From: a virus
Taxonomy: Duplodnaviria; Heunggongvirae; Uroviricota; Caudoviricetes
Strand: one strand, 5' to 3'
IMG/VR virus record: IMGVR_UViG_2802429244_000009
Length of the DNA: 13,264 bases
Shown here: piece after piece, positions 5,707-13,231 of the stretch
Numbering within the stretch: position 1 is the stretch's first letter
How the letters are laid out: every line of letters begins with the position of its first letter
Position numbers and translations under genes: made by a program
Notes under the pieces: generated by a model
The model's database searches: none
Told to the model about the DNA's origin: nothing
The model's input: the letters and a program-made list of their open reading frames with translations, nothing else

Positions 5707-7941
5707 GTGGCCAACCAAACCATAAAACGTTTTGGACTGGAAAATATGATACTCGATAAATCAGTGACGCACCCAGATCAGGATCGATATGGATTTCTTC
5801 ATATTGCTAGACAACTTGCAAGTGCCATTCATGCAATTGGACGAGAAGGTAGAGCTGTCATTGGCATTGAAGGTGCATGGGGCTCAGGAAAAACTAGCCT
5901 ATTGAATTTGCTACGTTCGGAGCTAGAAAAAGAGAAAAATGAACGAACTTATATTCTAAATATTTCCCCTTGGCTTGATGGTGATGGTATCAGCTCTGTG
6001 GAAACTTTGTTGCTACCTGTGGCGAGAGTCATTGCAGATGAGGAAGAAAAGTCATTACCGCCGAGGCAACGCAAGCGCCTCAATAAGAAAAACGAACTAA
6101 CTGAATCGGCGAAATCAATCCTGCGTTACTCACAGGTTACAGCACGGCATTTGGTTCCAATGGCGGAATTTGCTGCTCTTATTCCCGGAGTTCCCAATGC
6201 CGGTAAAGCTCTTAAGTCCTTTTCAGAGCTAAACTTAAAGGAAATCAGGAAGACCACCGCGGAATTACGTACTGAAATAGCAGAGAAGATTGCAGATCTT
6301 GATCTCAGTTTTATAGTGCTACTTGATGATCTGGATCGTCTTGAGCCAGCTCAGGCTGTCGAGATCATTCGACTAGTAAAATCGGTCGCAGATTTTCCTC
6401 GTTTCCGCTATATCTTATGTTATGACAGGGGCGTTCTGGCCCAAGCAATTAAAACCGGATTAGGAGTAGAAGATGGAAATGCTTACCTGCAGAAAATAGT
6501 GCAAATATCGTTCAGCCTTCCTCTTCCGGAATCATTTGATCTACGATTACAGTTTTTTGATGGTGCGGTCGCTCTTTACGAATCTGTTAACGGTTTTTCT
6601 CCTGACGAGGAAATATTGACGGACCTGAATACAATTACAGATACCTTTGGTGTCGCGCTTAAGACCCCACGAGAAGTGCAACTGTCTTTGAATGCCCTTG
6701 CTTTCAGGTATCCAGGCGTGAGAGATTACGTTTATCTGCCAGATCTATGCTTTCTTCAACTTATTCAAGTTACCTGCAGTAGTTTATATGAATGGATAGA
6801 ACAGTACCTGACTGAGTATGCAGTGGTAGCATCAGGCGATGGCACAGTCAGTGAGGCGCAACAACAACAAATTAGGGAGCATTTCGTTACTGCTATTTCA
6901 AAGTTACACCCTTTTTCTGACCTTATGATATACGAACTTAGTAAGATTATACCTGGTATTGAAGGGTATAAAGAAGATACGCTGAAACTTTTTCGTCAGA
7001 GCAGTGAAGAAGAGCAGGTCTTCATGGGGGCACAACGAAGACTTGGTAGTAGTGCCTACTGGCGTTACTACTTTGCATTTTCTGCTCCGCAATATGTTTT
7101 GCCGCCGGAGTTTTTTACCAATCTGTTTAACTTAGCCAGAACATTCGATAAAGAAACTGATCTTGCAATTGAGTTGCTCAGCAGAATCAATAGTAAAGGG
7201 CTTACATCACGAACATGGTATGAACATATCCTTAGTCAACTTAGCTCCCGTATGATCAAAGAACGTCATTTTGATGAATGTGCAGGGTTGTTAAAATTTT
7301 TTTTCAATTACGCTGATGGTGTTTGGGATTTCTACTATGAACGGAACCAGTGGTTCTCTTGGCAAACACTAGGTACGGAAGAGGTTGTAAACAATCTGCT
7401 CCGTCGACTACTGGAGTTGGATAGGCCCAGAGGAATGCGTTTGCTAAAACAACTGTTCACTCAGGGAAGCGCCTGGAACTGGGCTGCCGTATATCTGCGG
7501 GGATTGCTGTTGCAGAATGGTATGGCTGGAAGTCAAGCAGTTGCCATGTATAAGCGGATTTTGAAAAATACTGAGGTGGCCTCACTGTGTAAGCTTATGT
7601 CACGTCGCTTGAGAATGCGGCACATTCAAAATGAAATGTTTCGGTTCAACAATCTTCTACATTATGTTTATGCTTGGCGTGACATAGATTCACCAAAAAT
7701 TGTTTGTCGATGTCTACGGCGAATCTGTAAGGAAGATGATGGTTTTTTGAACCTGCTACTGCGTTTACGGAGAGTGGTATTTAGTAGCCACCGTGGGGCA
7801 TATCGAGAACTACGAATAAATCAAGTTTCATTTCTTATTGGACTCCCAAAAGATACTATTGTCTCGCGGCTGGAAAGCCTTGCTCAACAACGTAACAGAG
7901 ACTGGATGGTCGATGAATTACGGAATTCGTTTGAGCAGTAG
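5707..7941 (+). CDS. KAP-family P-loop NTPase (744 aa), candidate prophage-encoded defence / exclusion protein
   Basis: Walker A GAWGSGKTS near residue 57 and Walker B-like FIVLLDDLDRLEP near residue 200, the G-x-W-G-x-G-K-[ST] and hhhhDDLDR pattern typical of KAP NTPases. AAGGAG RBS before the GTG start. Gene is visibly AT-richer than its neighbours. C-terminal ~500 aa unassigned. Confidence 0.75.
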   Translation: MANQTIKRFGLENMILDKSVTHPDQDRYGFLHIARQLASAIHAIGREGRAVIGIEGAWGSGKTSLLNLLRSELEKEKNERTYILNISPWLDGDGISSVETLLLPVARVIADEEEKSLPPRQRKRLNKKNELTESAKSILRYSQVTARHLVPMAEFAALIPGVPNAGKALKSFSELNLKEIRKTTAELRTEIAEKIADLDLSFIVLLDDLDRLEPAQAVEIIRLVKSVADFPRFRYILCYDRGVLAQAIKTGLGVEDGNAYLQKIVQISFSLPLPESFDLRLQFFDGAVALYESVNGFSPDEEILTDLNTITDTFGVALKTPREVQLSLNALAFRYPGVRDYVYLPDLCFLQLIQVTCSSLYEWIEQYLTEYAVVASGDGTVSEAQQQQIREHFVTAISKLHPFSDLMIYELSKIIPGIEGYKEDTLKLFRQSSEEEQVFMGAQRRLGSSAYWRYYFAFSAPQYVLPPEFFTNLFNLARTFDKETDLAIELLSRINSKGLTSRTWYEHILSQLSSRMIKERHFDECAGLLKFFFNYADGVWDFYYERNQWFSWQTLGTEEVVNNLLRRLLELDRPRGMRLLKQLFTQGSAWNWAAVYLRGLLLQNGMAGSQAVAMYKRILKNTEVASLCKLMSRRLRMRHIQNEMFRFNNLLHYVYAWRDIDSPKIVCRCLRRICKEDDGFLNLLLRLRRVVFSSHRGAYRELRINQVSFLIGLPKDTIVSRLESLAQQRNRDWMVDELRNSFEQ

Positions 7942-8369: not shown

Positions 8370-8580
8370 TTTCATATTGGCGAGGTAACGGGAGTTAAGT
8401 AGAATGGCTGCGGGTGCTTGAGGCTATCTGTCTCAGGCATGAACACCAACGGCAGATAGAGAAAAGCCCCAGTTAACATTACGCGTCCTGCAAGACGCTT
8501 AACATTAATCTGAGGCCATATCTATGACTTGCACACGTAGGTTAGCCTCTTACGTGCCGAAAGGCAAGGAGAAGCAGGCT

Positions 8581-8736
8581 ATGAAGCAGCAAAAGGCGAT
8601 GTTAATCGCCCTGATCGTCATCTGTTTAACCGTCATAGTGACGGCACTGGTAACGAGGAAAGACCTCTGCGAGGTACGAATCCGAACCGGCCAGACGGAG
8701 GTCGCTGTCTTCACAGCTTACGAACCTGAGGAGTAA
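8581..8736 (+). CDS. hokD: Hok-family type I toxin, HokD (RelF)-like (51 aa)
   Basis: MKQQKAMLIALIVICLTVIVTALVTRKDLCEVRIRTGQTEVAVFTAYEPEE matches recalled HokD/Gef-family sequences. AGGAGAA RBS upstream; a structured GC-rich 3' region follows the stop. Confidence 0.85.
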   Translation: MKQQKAMLIALIVICLTVIVTALVTRKDLCEVRIRTGQTEVAVFTAYEPEE

Positions 8737-8964
8737 GAGACCCGGCGGGGGAGAAATCCCTCGCCACCCCTGATGTGTCAGGCATCCTCAACGCACCCAC
8801 ACTTAACCTTACTAGCAAGTGGCTTTAATATTATTGTAACATTTTCATGCTCGCATGTGTTTTCTGTTGTTATGAATTAGGTACAGGGTTCTTATGCTTC
8901 TTTATTGCGATGAGCTTGCAACTGATTGTTAGTTGCTATTGGTGGGGGAAGGGATATACTTTAA

Positions 8965-9213
8965 ATGAGCAAAAAAGAGAAGTTGAGGTGGCGTCTGAAT
9001 CAGCTTCCAAAGGATTTTACATGGGATGAACTCGTGACGTTGCTTGGGCATTATGGTTTCGAAATGCTTACCGGTTCAGGCTCAAGAAGGAAGTTTACCA
9101 ATGCTAATGGAAGGCTTGTGGCTTTTCATTGCCCACATCCTGGCAATATTGTTAAAGGATATGTGCTTAAAGAAGTGAAAAATCTTTTGGATGAGATTGA
9201 TAGTTATGAGTAA
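8965..9213 (+). CDS. hicA: HicA-family toxin (82 aa)
   Basis: Motif ...LLGHYGFEMLTGSGSRRKF....GRLVAFHCPHPGNIVKGYVLKEVKNLL fits the HicA (YcfA-like) pattern G.GS..KF...G....HxPHPG. It is immediately upstream of, and overlapping, a HicB-like gene. Confidence 0.7.
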   Translation: MSKKEKLRWRLNQLPKDFTWDELVTLLGHYGFEMLTGSGSRRKFTNANGRLVAFHCPHPGNIVKGYVLKEVKNLLDEIDSYE

Positions 9214-9682
9214 TGTGCTGAGTTATAAAGGTTATTTTGGCAGCATTGAGGTTTCACTTGAAGATAACATACTTCATGGGAAAATTCAGTGCGTAAACGA
9301 TGTTGTAACCTACGAAGCGGAAACACTGGATGGGTTAAGGGCGGCTTTTGAAGAAGCTGTTACAGATTATCTCGACACATGCAAGCAGTTAGGGAAATCT
9401 CCTGATAAACCAATGAGTGGTACTTTTAACATCAGAATTGGTCGCGATCTTCATAAGAAAGCGTTTTTGGCTGCAATGGCGGATAAGACGACGCTTAATG
9501 ATTATGTGCGTAAAGCTATCGAAGAAAAGATTGCTGACAAAAAAGAAGTTCATTCTCATTCGGAAAGCGAAGAAACGACAGATACATTCGTTTGGGAAAA
9601 AGCATTCTCTTTTGGTTATGTCATTTCCCCTTCAGCAAGAACAAAAAAGAAAGAGGCTGGTGAGCGATGGATGCGTCACTGA
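9206..9682 (+). CDS. hicB: HicB-family antitoxin (158 aa) with C-terminal extension
   Basis: YKGYFGSIEVSLEDNILHGKIQ...DVVTYEAETLDGLRAAFEEAVTDYLDTCKQLGKSPDKPMSGTFNIRIGRDLHKKA matches the HicB-like antitoxin pattern (YKGY.GS...DYL..C...G..P.KP.SG.FN.RI...LH.KA). ATG at 9206 overlaps the hicA stop at 9211-9213. Confidence 0.8.
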   Translation: MSNVLSYKGYFGSIEVSLEDNILHGKIQCVNDVVTYEAETLDGLRAAFEEAVTDYLDTCKQLGKSPDKPMSGTFNIRIGRDLHKKAFLAAMADKTTLNDYVRKAIEEKIADKKEVHSHSESEETTDTFVWEKAFSFGYVISPSARTKKKEAGERWMRH

Positions 9683-10095
9683 TGTTACAAAATATTAAGT
9701 ATGCTGGTTTCGATATTGTTTCCAGTAGTTTCAAGGATAACACTAGTGATGATGGAGGGTTTTTTAAGGTCTCGATCGAGGAAGTTAAATTTTCTTCGGG
9801 GCGCGATGATGATGGTACTTGTTGGTTCCGGATTGGATTTTCGCCATCGATAAAAGGGTATCCCGATAGAGATGGTGCCGGGGATGAAGAACCCTCTTTT
9901 GAGCTAAAGATGGAGCTGATTACGGACTTTGATATCATGAATGGAGAGTTGATCGATGAAAAATTCTTTGTGAAAAATTCATGGTATTTTGAGAATTTCA
10001 TGTCGTTGACGTTAAAATTGGCGGTGGACTCTGTTCTTAAGCACACGTCGTTAAGCGATATTTATTTCCCCTGGTATTCGCCGGACTCAGCTTAA
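9682..10095 (+). CDS. Hypothetical acidic 137-aa protein, translationally coupled to hicB (third gene of the operon)
   Basis: ATG at 9682 overlaps the hicB stop (TGATG); an in-frame ATG at 9667 is an alternative start. AT-rich like hicAB, followed by a terminator. Product is Asp/Glu- and aromatic-rich with no recognised domain. Confidence 0.55.
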   Translation: MLQNIKYAGFDIVSSSFKDNTSDDGGFFKVSIEEVKFSSGRDDDGTCWFRIGFSPSIKGYPDRDGAGDEEPSFELKMELITDFDIMNGELIDEKFFVKNSWYFENFMSLTLKLAVDSVLKHTSLSDIYFPWYSPDSA

Positions 10096-10100
10096 TAATC

Positions 10101-10130
10101 AAGCCCGCCGATGTGGGCTTTGTGTTATTC
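10101..10130 (+). terminator. Rho-independent terminator after the hicAB-orf3 operon
   Basis: Stem AAGCCC (10101-10106) / GGGCTT (10115-10120) with an 8-nt loop, followed by the T-rich tract TGTGTTATT. Confidence 0.5.
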
Positions 10131-11536: not shown

Positions 11537-11911
11537 ATGCGTATAGAGTTTGTTTTGCCTTACCCGCCGACGGTGAACACCTACTGGCGACGTCGTGGCA
11601 GCACATATTTTGTATCAAAAGCCGGTGAGCGTTATCGCCGGGATGTGGCGCTCATTGTTCGCCAGCAGCGACTGAAATTAAACCTGTCCGGAAGGCTGGC
11701 AATAAAAATTATTGCAGAGCCACCGGATAAGTGCCGTCGTGACCTGGACAATATTCTGAAAGCACCACTGGATGCACTGACACATGCGGGGTTGCTTATC
11801 GACGACGAGCAGTTTGATGAAATCAATATTGTGCGCGGACTGCCTGTTTCTGGTGGTCGGTTGGGCGTGAAGATTTACGAAATAATGCATGACGGGCAGG
11901 TCCAAAAATGA
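11537..11911 (+). CDS. rusA: Holliday junction resolvase RusA (124 aa)
   Basis: Pattern PPTVNTYWRRRG....S..G..YR......DKCRRDLDNILKAPLDALTHAGLLIDD matches recalled RusA (catalytic RRDLDN/DD). AAGAGG RBS upstream. Confidence 0.85.
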   Translation: MRIEFVLPYPPTVNTYWRRRGSTYFVSKAGERYRRDVALIVRQQRLKLNLSGRLAIKIIAEPPDKCRRDLDNILKAPLDALTHAGLLIDDEQFDEINIVRGLPVSGGRLGVKIYEIMHDGQVQK

Positions 11912-12729
11912 AACTGGAAGATTTACCGAAATACTATTCCCCAAAATCGCCAGGCCTGACTGATGCATCCGCCTCGACGTCAAAAGATGCGCTGAGCATC
12001 ACTGATGTGATGGCTGCGCAGGGTATGACACAAAACCGGGCTGAGATGGGGTTTTCTGCGTTCCTGGGGAAAATGGGCATTAGTATGAATGACAGGGTGC
12101 GGGCAACAGAATTACTGGCAGATTATGCATTAAGTCAGTGCGATCGCGTGGCGGCGTTAAGAAAGCTTCCGGCAGAAATAAAGCCGGCAGTGATGCGCAT
12201 TATGGCTTCGTACGCTTTTGAGGATTATGCCCGCAGCGCAGCGAGTAAAAAACAGTGCCCTTGTTGCCATGGGGAAAAATTTATTGAAAGCGAAGTTTTT
12301 ACAAACAAGGTTCAGTATCCGGATGGCAAGCCGCCAGTATGGGCAAAGTGCACAAAAGGTGTGTATCCGTCTTACTGGGAAGAATGGAAAAAAGTTAGGG
12401 AGGTGGTGAAAGTTTCCTGTCCTGAATGTAAAGGGAAGGGAGAGATTTCCACTGCCTGTAAAGACTGCCGTGGGCGTGGTGTCGCCATTCATCGTGAAGA
12501 GTCGGAAAAACGGGGTATTCCTGTTATCAGGAACTGCCAGCGTTGTGGCGGTCGTGGTTATGAAAGACTACCATCAACGGAGGCATTTAATGCCATATGT
12601 GAGGTGACAAATCAGATAACACGTGCGTCATGGGAAAAAACTGTTAAGCAATTCTATGACACACTGGTGGTTCGGTTTGACATTGAAGAGGCATGGGCGG
12701 AGCGACAGTTAAAAAAGGTAACCAGATAA
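11908..12729 (+). CDS. Late-gene antiterminator Q, lambda-type with extra Cys-rich insertion (273 aa)
   Basis: N-terminal (YYSPKSP...TDVMAAQGM) and C-terminal (KTVKQFYDTLVV...VTR) regions parallel recalled lambda Q, with additional CxxC pairs in the middle. Start overlaps the rusA stop (ATGA) and a lambda-like pR'/qut follows immediately. Confidence 0.8.
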   Translation: MKLEDLPKYYSPKSPGLTDASASTSKDALSITDVMAAQGMTQNRAEMGFSAFLGKMGISMNDRVRATELLADYALSQCDRVAALRKLPAEIKPAVMRIMASYAFEDYARSAASKKQCPCCHGEKFIESEVFTNKVQYPDGKPPVWAKCTKGVYPSYWEEWKKVREVVKVSCPECKGKGEISTACKDCRGRGVAIHREESEKRGIPVIRNCQRCGGRGYERLPSTEAFNAICEVTNQITRASWEKTVKQFYDTLVVRFDIEEAWAERQLKKVTR

Positions 12730-13077: not shown

Positions 13078-13153
<76 letters not shown>

Positions 13154-13156
13154 TAT

Positions 13157-13231
<75 letters not shown>

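Follow-up and report, generated by a model that had tools for sequence, protein, structure and literature searches.

What does a third gene contribute when it is coupled to a hicAB toxin–antitoxin pair in a prophage? The question is raised by IMG/VR virus record IMGVR_UViG_2802429244_000009, a Caudoviricetes sequence of 13,264 nucleotides (nt; the window, by which we mean this whole stretch), for which a preliminary description made from the letters alone had reported a HicA-HicB module followed by an uncharacterised acidic open reading frame (ORF). We consider it likely that the three genes, hicA, hicB and hicC, form a HicAB-type tripartite toxin–antitoxin–chaperone (TAC) system, borne by lambdoid prophages as a mobile cassette of cargo genes. 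Its third protein, HicC, is predicted with high confidence, from structure modelling, to have the SecB chaperone fold and, judging by related systems, this HicAB-type TAC is probably antiphage. The cassette comprises the following features:

8887..10100, plus strand: mobile three-gene cassette (operator/promoter, hicA, hicB and hicC), the unit common to different prophage positions.
8916..8938, no strand assigned: operator palindrome TTGCAACT-N7-AGTTGCTA, presumed binding site of the HicB ribbon-helix-helix (RHH) domain.
8933..8960, plus strand: candidate sigma-70 promoter TTGCTA-16-TATACT, from a promoter scan and conserved geometry.
8965..9213, plus strand: hicA, toxin of 82 amino acids (aa), isoelectric point (pI) 9.2, assigned by PF07927 (HicA_toxin).
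9206..9541, plus strand: hicB core, encoding the N-terminal HicB domain and the RHH DNA-binding domain, assigned by PF05534.
9542..9682, plus strand: HicB C-terminal tail of 46 aa (KEVHSHSESEETTDTFVWEKAFSFGYVISPSARTKKKEAGERWMRH) and stop codon, a candidate chaperone addiction (ChAD) element.
9682..10095, plus strand: hicC, predicted SecB-fold chaperone of 137 aa, pI 4.31, from AlphaFold2/Foldseek.
10101..10130, plus strand: intrinsic terminator ending the operon, with an 8-bp stem and a T-rich tail.

The coordinates, overlaps and coupled 137-aa acidic third ORF given in the preliminary description all hold in the sequence: hicA and hicB overlap by 8 nt (ATGAGTAA), and hicB and hicC by 1 nt, the hicC ATG lying within a TGATG (9680-9684) shared with the hicB stop. 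The same is true of its AT-rich composition (GC fraction 0.40 for the cassette versus 0.458 for the window and 0.525 just downstream) and of its single terminator (8-bp stem at 10101-10120 with five GC pairs, T-rich tail, -12.2 kcal/mol), which sits where the cassette-less backbone has the hokD terminator. The TAC gene order, that is, toxin, antitoxin and chaperone, co-directional and in one operon with a single terminator after hicC, is present here and in all related loci.

Toxin and antitoxin were assigned by profile, each with a match above its cut-off. HicA matched Pfam PF07927 (HicA_toxin; E 5.4e-10, 39.7 bits versus a gathering cut-off of 27), and identical hicA copies are annotated 'HicA family toxin' in RefSeq. 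HicB (158 aa), whose core is conserved across loci, matched PF05534 over residues 55-105 (E 1.3e-17, 63.9 bits versus a cut-off of 21), and over residues 64-111 its profile matches PDB entries of the RHH repressors omega, Mnt and CopG. These matches, with the synteny described below, uphold the earlier call of a HicA-HicB module to which a third gene is translationally coupled, and this third gene is conserved. An upstream in-frame hicB start (ATG 9191) was rejected, since homologues begin at MSN, i.e. at 9206, and a PADLOC match of HicB to AbiEii (E 0.0025) was treated as noise.

The third protein was analysed by sequence and by structure. Single-protein searches of Pfam, NCBIfam, PADLOC and PDB sequences (phmmer) with HicC gave no match, a 43-sequence HicC profile found nothing among PDB sequences, and a Pfam scan of the 43 family members one by one gave no match to SecB (PF02556) at E <= 1. 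A word-index protein search returned three to seven HicC relatives, and an exhaustive HMMER search, used instead and covering 1.84 billion cluster representatives, gave 46 HicC clusters at E <= 1e-3; a related-locus search in species-representative genomes gave a single locus. Nearly all of the 46 clusters begin at the Met encoded at 9682, and an upstream in-frame hicC start (ATG 9667) was rejected on these homologue N-termini. The AlphaFold2 model built on the 43-sequence alignment (predicted local distance difference test score, pLDDT, 91.3; predicted template modelling score, pTM, 0.83), which replaced a first model from four near-identical sequences (pLDDT 64.7), has four long antiparallel beta strands, then a short helix and a long helix, and no regular secondary structure past the latter, from residue 120 on. 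When the PDB was searched with this model using Foldseek, all 19 matches at E <= 1e-3 were SecB or SecB-TA. The top match was 5mtw (Rv1957 with the HigA1 ChAD peptide; E 6.6e-5, template modelling (TM) score 0.63-0.65, ~137 columns, 8-10% identity), and the next were E. coli SecB 1qyn and H. influenzae SecB 1fx3, 1ozb; in a viral structure library, the best and fourth matches are annotated 'Preprotein translocase subunit SecB'. HicC is, moreover, small and strongly acidic, as is SecB. Housekeeping secB lies in the context yibN-grxC-secB-gpsA, and HicC is not the housekeeping SecB by context, its gene being in a prophage directly after hicB, nor does it match the SecB profile. The new, uncharacterised accessory component of the preliminary description therefore becomes a protein with a predicted SecB chaperone fold, in an architecture that is an established TAC class.

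Because the RHH match spans residues 64-111 of HicB, the tail formed by residues 113-158 is an appendage outside the DNA-binding domain, which ends near residue 111. Its 46 aa agree with the C-terminal extension of roughly 50 aa noticed earlier; they include six aromatics, F128, W130, F134, F136, Y138 and W155, and are hydrophilic overall (grand average of hydropathy -1.11), and across loci the tails are poorly conserved in sequence, though H-x-H and Trp positions recur. Such an extension is absent from two-gene relatives, in which HicB ends 3-25 residues past the RHH domain: HicB of phage ST79 (129 aa) and of a Helicobacter prophage (BK070131.1; 115 aa) have neither a long tail nor a co-directional third gene beside them, and a hicAB copy on a Haematospirillum plasmid is also without a third gene. 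We extended the comparison to a census of IMG/VR hicAB loci (n = 34 among the matches listed), for which complete HicB and downstream sequence were needed. In these, HicB tails of at least 33 aa (33-75 aa) accompany a coupled third ORF of 126-186 aa, mostly acidic and starting -44 to +44 nt from the hicB stop. The lone exception among the matches listed (L090) has a tail with an uncoupled basic 228-aa ORF, and the three tail-less HicBs among them (L107, L112, L136) have no coupled third ORF. Tails could be aligned for 21 of 102 pairs within a third-gene family versus 7 of 276 between families. A ChAD would be intrinsically disordered. By comparison with described systems, this pattern of tail and third gene would fit what the TAC literature defines as a ChAD element: C-terminal, variable in length and sequence, chaperone-specific and recognised via aromatics (Bordes 2016 PMC5105189; Mets 2024 bioRxiv 10.1101/2024.02.24.581848).

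The tail ends show a pattern of their own. Of the 14 tails that go with this HicC family, 13 have His as their last residue (9665-9679 in the window); most start with K-E-[VI]-H-x-H-x-E, with a Trp placed 4-15 residues before the end, and tails of other third-gene families end otherwise, e.g. in LRV[VI]Q. The conserved tail-end pattern of HicC-linked HicBs could be a degron or a chaperone-recognition motif.

A further element common to these loci lies upstream of hicA. The arms of the window palindrome are complementary at seven of eight positions, with a perfect 6-bp core GCAACT/AGTTGC (8918-8923/8931-8936); on its own it is not beyond chance and is missed by a repeat search at a minimum length of 7. 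In related loci, however, TGCAACT-N7-AGTTGCA or the extended TGCAACTA-N5-TAGTTGCA is found upstream of hicA, centred 34.5-39.5 nt from its start in most of them (29.5 nt in L017), in E. coli, Vibrio, a Burkholderia phage and several metagenomes with otherwise unrelated flanks. The exact 14-base pattern occurs at at least 120 IMG/VR loci; among the matches listed, 33 have hicA and 33 hicB, in 34 loci in all, and the palindrome is at most 90 nt upstream of a located hicA start in 25 distinct census regions. Since it has been kept ahead of hicA across E. coli, Vibrio and Burkholderia phages, we take the palindrome to be a genuine operator, as the preliminary description had suggested, and infer that the HicB RHH domain binds it.

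The promoter behaves alike. TTGCTA-16-TATACT scores 9 of 12, no better than chance in a single scan (3 such matches versus 3.1 expected), its -35 hexamer lying within the right arm of the palindrome and 4 nt separating its -10 hexamer from the hicA ATG. At a spacing of 16-18 nt from TTGCNN, a -10-like hexamer is present in 18 of 34 distinct upstream regions versus 5 of 126 control windows (inside the spacer), and in most of these 18 it ends 1-6 nt before the start codon, a conserved geometry that would allow an mRNA with no leader or almost none, as the preliminary description proposed for the window. The G-rich Shine-Dalgarno-like stretch at 8944-8954 would serve read-through transcripts. A second promoter architecture was seen in loci L028, L050, L067, L083 and L112, where TATAAT/TAGAAT directly precedes the left arm, with a GAGGTGG Shine-Dalgarno further on; the operator there overlaps the transcription start, not the -35 hexamer.

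Following the TAC paradigm (Bordes 2016; Vassallo 2022; Mets 2024), the parts could work together in this way. HicB would bind the palindrome and autoregulate the operon. Its aromatic-rich tail, acting as the ChAD, would make HicB unstable or aggregation-prone unless held by HicC, to which the tail would bind; as HicB would need HicC to stay stable, HicA would be neutralised only while free HicC is available. An abundant protein of an infecting phage, probably a structural one, would compete for the binding groove of HicC, HicB would be lost and HicA freed, and the infected cell would be arrested and the infection aborted. A defence module with the third protein as its sensor, one of the options raised in the preliminary description, would by analogy be the most likely function; the other roles it had offered for this protein, effector or anti-defence partner, found no support.

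Several points weigh against this interpretation. The SecB assignment rests on a predicted structure matched at ~10% identity and TM ~0.6, and both Pfam SecB and an hhalign comparison with E. coli SecB (probability 0.2%) find nothing. PADLOC, whose models cover known and candidate defence systems, fails to recognise the system, and no chaperone model in it matches HicC. The co-variation of tail and third gene is confounded by phylogeny, HicB core identity being 60% within and 45% between third-gene families. Lastly, HicA of this clade is without the canonical catalytic His, and its RNase activity would be an assumption.

The genomic surroundings bear on both mobility and function. The cassette is found in two positions, between hokD and DUF968 in the nin region (the window) and directly after cI in the rexAB slot (L002, a diverged E. 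coli copy, and other E. coli prophages). Similarity between the two contexts is limited to window 8887-10102, the terminator being supplied by each context, and hence the promoter region and the three genes move as a unit. In a cassette-less prophage (L145), ~80 nt separate hokD from the DUF968 region, a junction that places the insertion here at about 8811-10112, between hokD and its backbone terminator position. The window allele is present in 13 of 5,426 complete E. coli genomes, always with three genes. Phages mEp234, HK106 and mEp506 have a diverged hicABC between cI and N, in the rexAB slot, with HicB 62% and HicC 32% identical to those of the window. In GenBank PV340539.1 (mEp234) and PV340542.1 (2025), the genes are labelled HicA toxin, HicB antitoxin and 'HicC chaperone', and a literature search for HicC/HicABC and these labelled phage loci found no describing paper. 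At the right boundary, the 86-nt stretch 10115-10200 matches ~2,200 E. coli genomes at ~90% identity; it is conserved prophage backbone upstream of a small ORF and the DUF968 gene, and helps to fix that boundary of the insertion.

Within the window, genes for a cI-like repressor, Cro, YdaT and replication lie upstream of the cassette, and DUF968, RusA and Q downstream. The adjoining 744-aa KAP-family P-loop NTPase (5707-7941, plus strand) is a full-length PifA (PADLOC E 3.6e-281; KAP_NTPase E 4e-40), the abortive-infection protein of the F plasmid, and a hok/sok type I module (8412-8736, plus strand; Rfam sok 109.5 bits, Hok ORF ending at 8736) is immediately upstream. PifA, hok/sok and hicABC make up a cluster of cargo genes in the early-right part of a lambdoid prophage, and this local context fits a defence role. 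Two tRNA genes (13078-13150 and 13157-13228, plus strand) were also observed downstream of the Q antiterminator gene (11908-12729); tRNA cargo is usual in lambdoid late-promoter regions.

The same context can be read differently. The TAC system could be as described and yet serve prophage maintenance (addiction) or a stress response, the chaperone being a regulator of stability and not a phage sensor. Toxin–antitoxin modules on mobile elements are classically addiction systems, the cassette adjoins hok/sok, itself a post-segregational killing module, and passages of the original TAC literature frame such systems as stress-responsive (PMC3581621), an addiction or stress role having been first proposed for M. 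tuberculosis HigBA1-SecB-TA. We nevertheless hold this to be clearly the less probable role, given that every TAC tested for antiphage activity in E. coli so far defends against phage, that the cassette is found repeatedly in the rexAB exclusion slot after cI and here adjoins PifA, and that plasmid-style addiction would be of little gain to integrated prophages.

A second alternative is that the third gene is functionally independent of HicAB, acting either as an anti-defence gene or as a SecB-like chaperone that serves proteins of the phage itself. Stand-alone proteins annotated SecB do occur in phages, and the link between HicC and HicB is one of sequence and synteny. We looked at nine neighbourhoods in all, including those of seven HicC homologues and an Oceanospirillum metagenome-assembled genome locus (L144). 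In every one with readable upstream sequence (9 of 9), hicC directly follows a PF05534 hicB and a PF07927 hicA, though HicC identity is 24-42% where listed (P0045 24%, P0037 27%, P0005 42%); HicB has 152-188 aa where its gene was called, and hicA is simply uncalled in L013. All are temperate-phage neighbourhoods, with S24 repressor and Cro, integrases, DUF968/RusA and terminase. The gene-neighbourhood comparison proposed in the preliminary description thus found the third ORF strictly conserved with hicAB down to 24% identity. With the hicC start codon overlapping the hicB stop, the HicB tail being present only with the third gene, and the three genes travelling together between genomic positions, independence of HicC appears very improbable.

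Equally improbable, in our judgement, is that HicA is catalytically inactive and the module mainly a transcriptional regulator, or toxic by some other mechanism. In the HicA toxins of B. pseudomallei, E. coli and Y. pestis, a Gly-(Ser/Gly)-His motif supplies the catalytic His. The window HicA departs from it, having GSRRKF (GSRRK at 9079-9093) with Arg41 at the His position, and across the HicA clade the residue there is Arg, Gly, Lys or Tyr; when aligned to 1whz, the HicA of T. thermophilus, the window protein likewise has Arg opposite His, but this alignment is weak (E 0.88). The clade keeps an invariant H-x-P-H-P motif (HCPHP in the window, 9127-9141) that could supply the catalytic His; its active site may have moved, or its activity may be a different one. 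A search for a close solved relative of HicA or HicB of this clade found none. A conserved three-gene order with an addiction tail would make little sense without a toxin, and a HicAB-type TAC was toxic in E. coli.

That the minus-strand ORF 9621-10046, open for 141 aa in the window, is the real gene and the plus-strand third ORF spurious can be set aside, since the former has no Pfam match and does not stay open in L002 or in any of the seven further homologous loci that we checked, where its frame is open for mostly 51-72 aa at the longest (103 aa in L004) versus 146 aa here, whereas the plus-strand protein has 46 homologue clusters and a model with a pLDDT of 91, and its gene differs between the window and L002 by 19, 8 and 53 at codon positions 1, 2 and 3. 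The two copies are separated by 38 synonymous and 28 non-synonymous codon changes; the codon-position pattern and the broken minus-strand ORF together establish that the plus-strand third gene is real and under purifying selection, in keeping with the strand favoured at the outset.

Returning to the antiphage TAC, HicC is not the only third protein found with this toxin–antitoxin pair. The same HicAB clade and palindrome precede at least nine other third-gene families, which are unalignable with one another or with HicC and of which none is in Pfam (loci L027, L028, L050, L054, L060, L063, L066, L067, L080, L083, L104, L129 and phage vB_RY5), making at least ten families in total on one HicAB clade. 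Several of them have SecB-like C-termini (a helix, then a Pro-rich 'P.L.LPP'), and the third gene of Burkholderia phage vB_RY5 (L020 1932-2492) gave a weak profile match (probability 20%). A constant HicA-HicB and operator, kept by temperate phages and fitted with swapped chaperone/tail pairs, might, as a tentative and rather doubtful extension, amount to an unrecognised repertoire of structurally SecB-like sensors of phage proteins with different specificities; the HicA of the clade, which lacks the canonical catalytic His, may also have a relocated active site.

In RefSeq, hicC goes under 'hypothetical protein', and it escapes Pfam, NCBIfam and PADLOC alike; the defence-system finders in current use are therefore unable to see TAC systems of this kind. 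Three simple handles for finding them are offered by the fold assignment, the co-occurrence rule of tail and third gene, and the conserved operator. If the TAC reading is true, hicAB should be toxic without hicC, removal of the tail should cure this, and phage escape mutants should map to a HicC-binding protein; if many of the third-gene families are SecB-like sensors, the HicAB clade would lend itself naturally to following the evolution of chaperone specificity for phage proteins. New here are the fold evidence for a chaperone family missed by every sequence library, the tail/third-gene rule and the conserved operator/promoter geometry, and the occurrence of at least ten mutually unalignable third-gene families on one HicAB clade. 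Since the mechanism class is known and a homologue is already called 'HicC chaperone' in GenBank, we regard these as an extension of what was known and not as a surprise.

Among known systems, Mmet-TAC of Methylomonas methanica MC09 (HicA Metme_2813, HicB Metme_2812 and SecB-TA; Bordes 2016 PMC5105189) shares with hicABC the HicAB pair, the third-gene chaperone and the single operon, as well as an antitoxin with a C-terminal ChAD (~42 aa versus the 46-aa tail here), and its chaperone dependence was shown in E. coli (PMC5105189). The two, compared by description only, differ in that its chaperone is SecB-homologous by sequence, whereas HicC is invisible to Pfam, NCBIfam and PDB sequences. HigBAC of E. 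coli NT1F31 (Mets 2024 bioRxiv 10.1101/2024.02.24.581848) resembles hicABC in its location on a lambdoid prophage, in the variable locus that follows cI (rexAB slot), where the hicABC copies of L002, mEp234, HK106 and mEp506 also lie, and in its SecB-fold chaperone and aromatic-rich ChAD. HigBAC is a validated antiphage system, in which the chaperone senses the lambda tail protein gpV, a structural protein, via the pockets that bind the ChAD aromatics (bioRxiv 10.1101/2024.02.24.581848). It is unlike hicABC in having HigBA instead of HicAB and a ChAD of 96 aa with four spaced aromatic motifs versus 46 aa here, and its function is demonstrated, that of hicABC inferred.

CmdTAC (PD-T4-9) and MqsRAC of E. 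coli (Vassallo 2022 PMC9519451) are likewise three-gene TAC defence systems on prophages. They defend against T-even phages, and excess chaperone abolishes the defence, which supports a trigger by chaperone titration (PMC9519451). Their toxins are an ADP-ribosyltransferase and MqsR, in contrast to HicA, and the PADLOC chaperone models miss HicC. M. tuberculosis HigBA1-Rv1957 (5mtw), the founding TAC, with a ChAD peptide in the SecB groove, is the best structural match of HicC, but at 8-10% identity, with a toxin of the HigB family and a chromosomal location, and it is discussed as a stress or persistence module.

The hicA-hicB-'HicC chaperone' loci of mEp234, HK106 and mEp506 (PV340539.1, PV340542.1, JQ182732, JQ086369) have the same gene family in the same order and the same palindrome, 37.5 nt from the start codon; they represent a different allele in a different position (cI-N), and the name 'HicC chaperone' is a database annotation only. 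The two-gene HicAB loci of phage ST79 and the Helicobacter prophage BK070131.1, the latter with a near-identical palindrome, share the PF07927 HicA and the PF05534 HicB core with its RHH domain, and are unlike hicABC in their HicB of 115-129 aa and two-gene layout. The TAC class, its HicAB subtype and a role in prophage defence are already published. Of the 'atypical toxin–antitoxin-derived defence module' that the preliminary description had seen in the window, defence stays the likely role and 'atypical' does not hold, TAC being documented both for HicAB (PMC5105189) and for lambdoid prophages (bioRxiv 10.1101/2024.02.24.581848).

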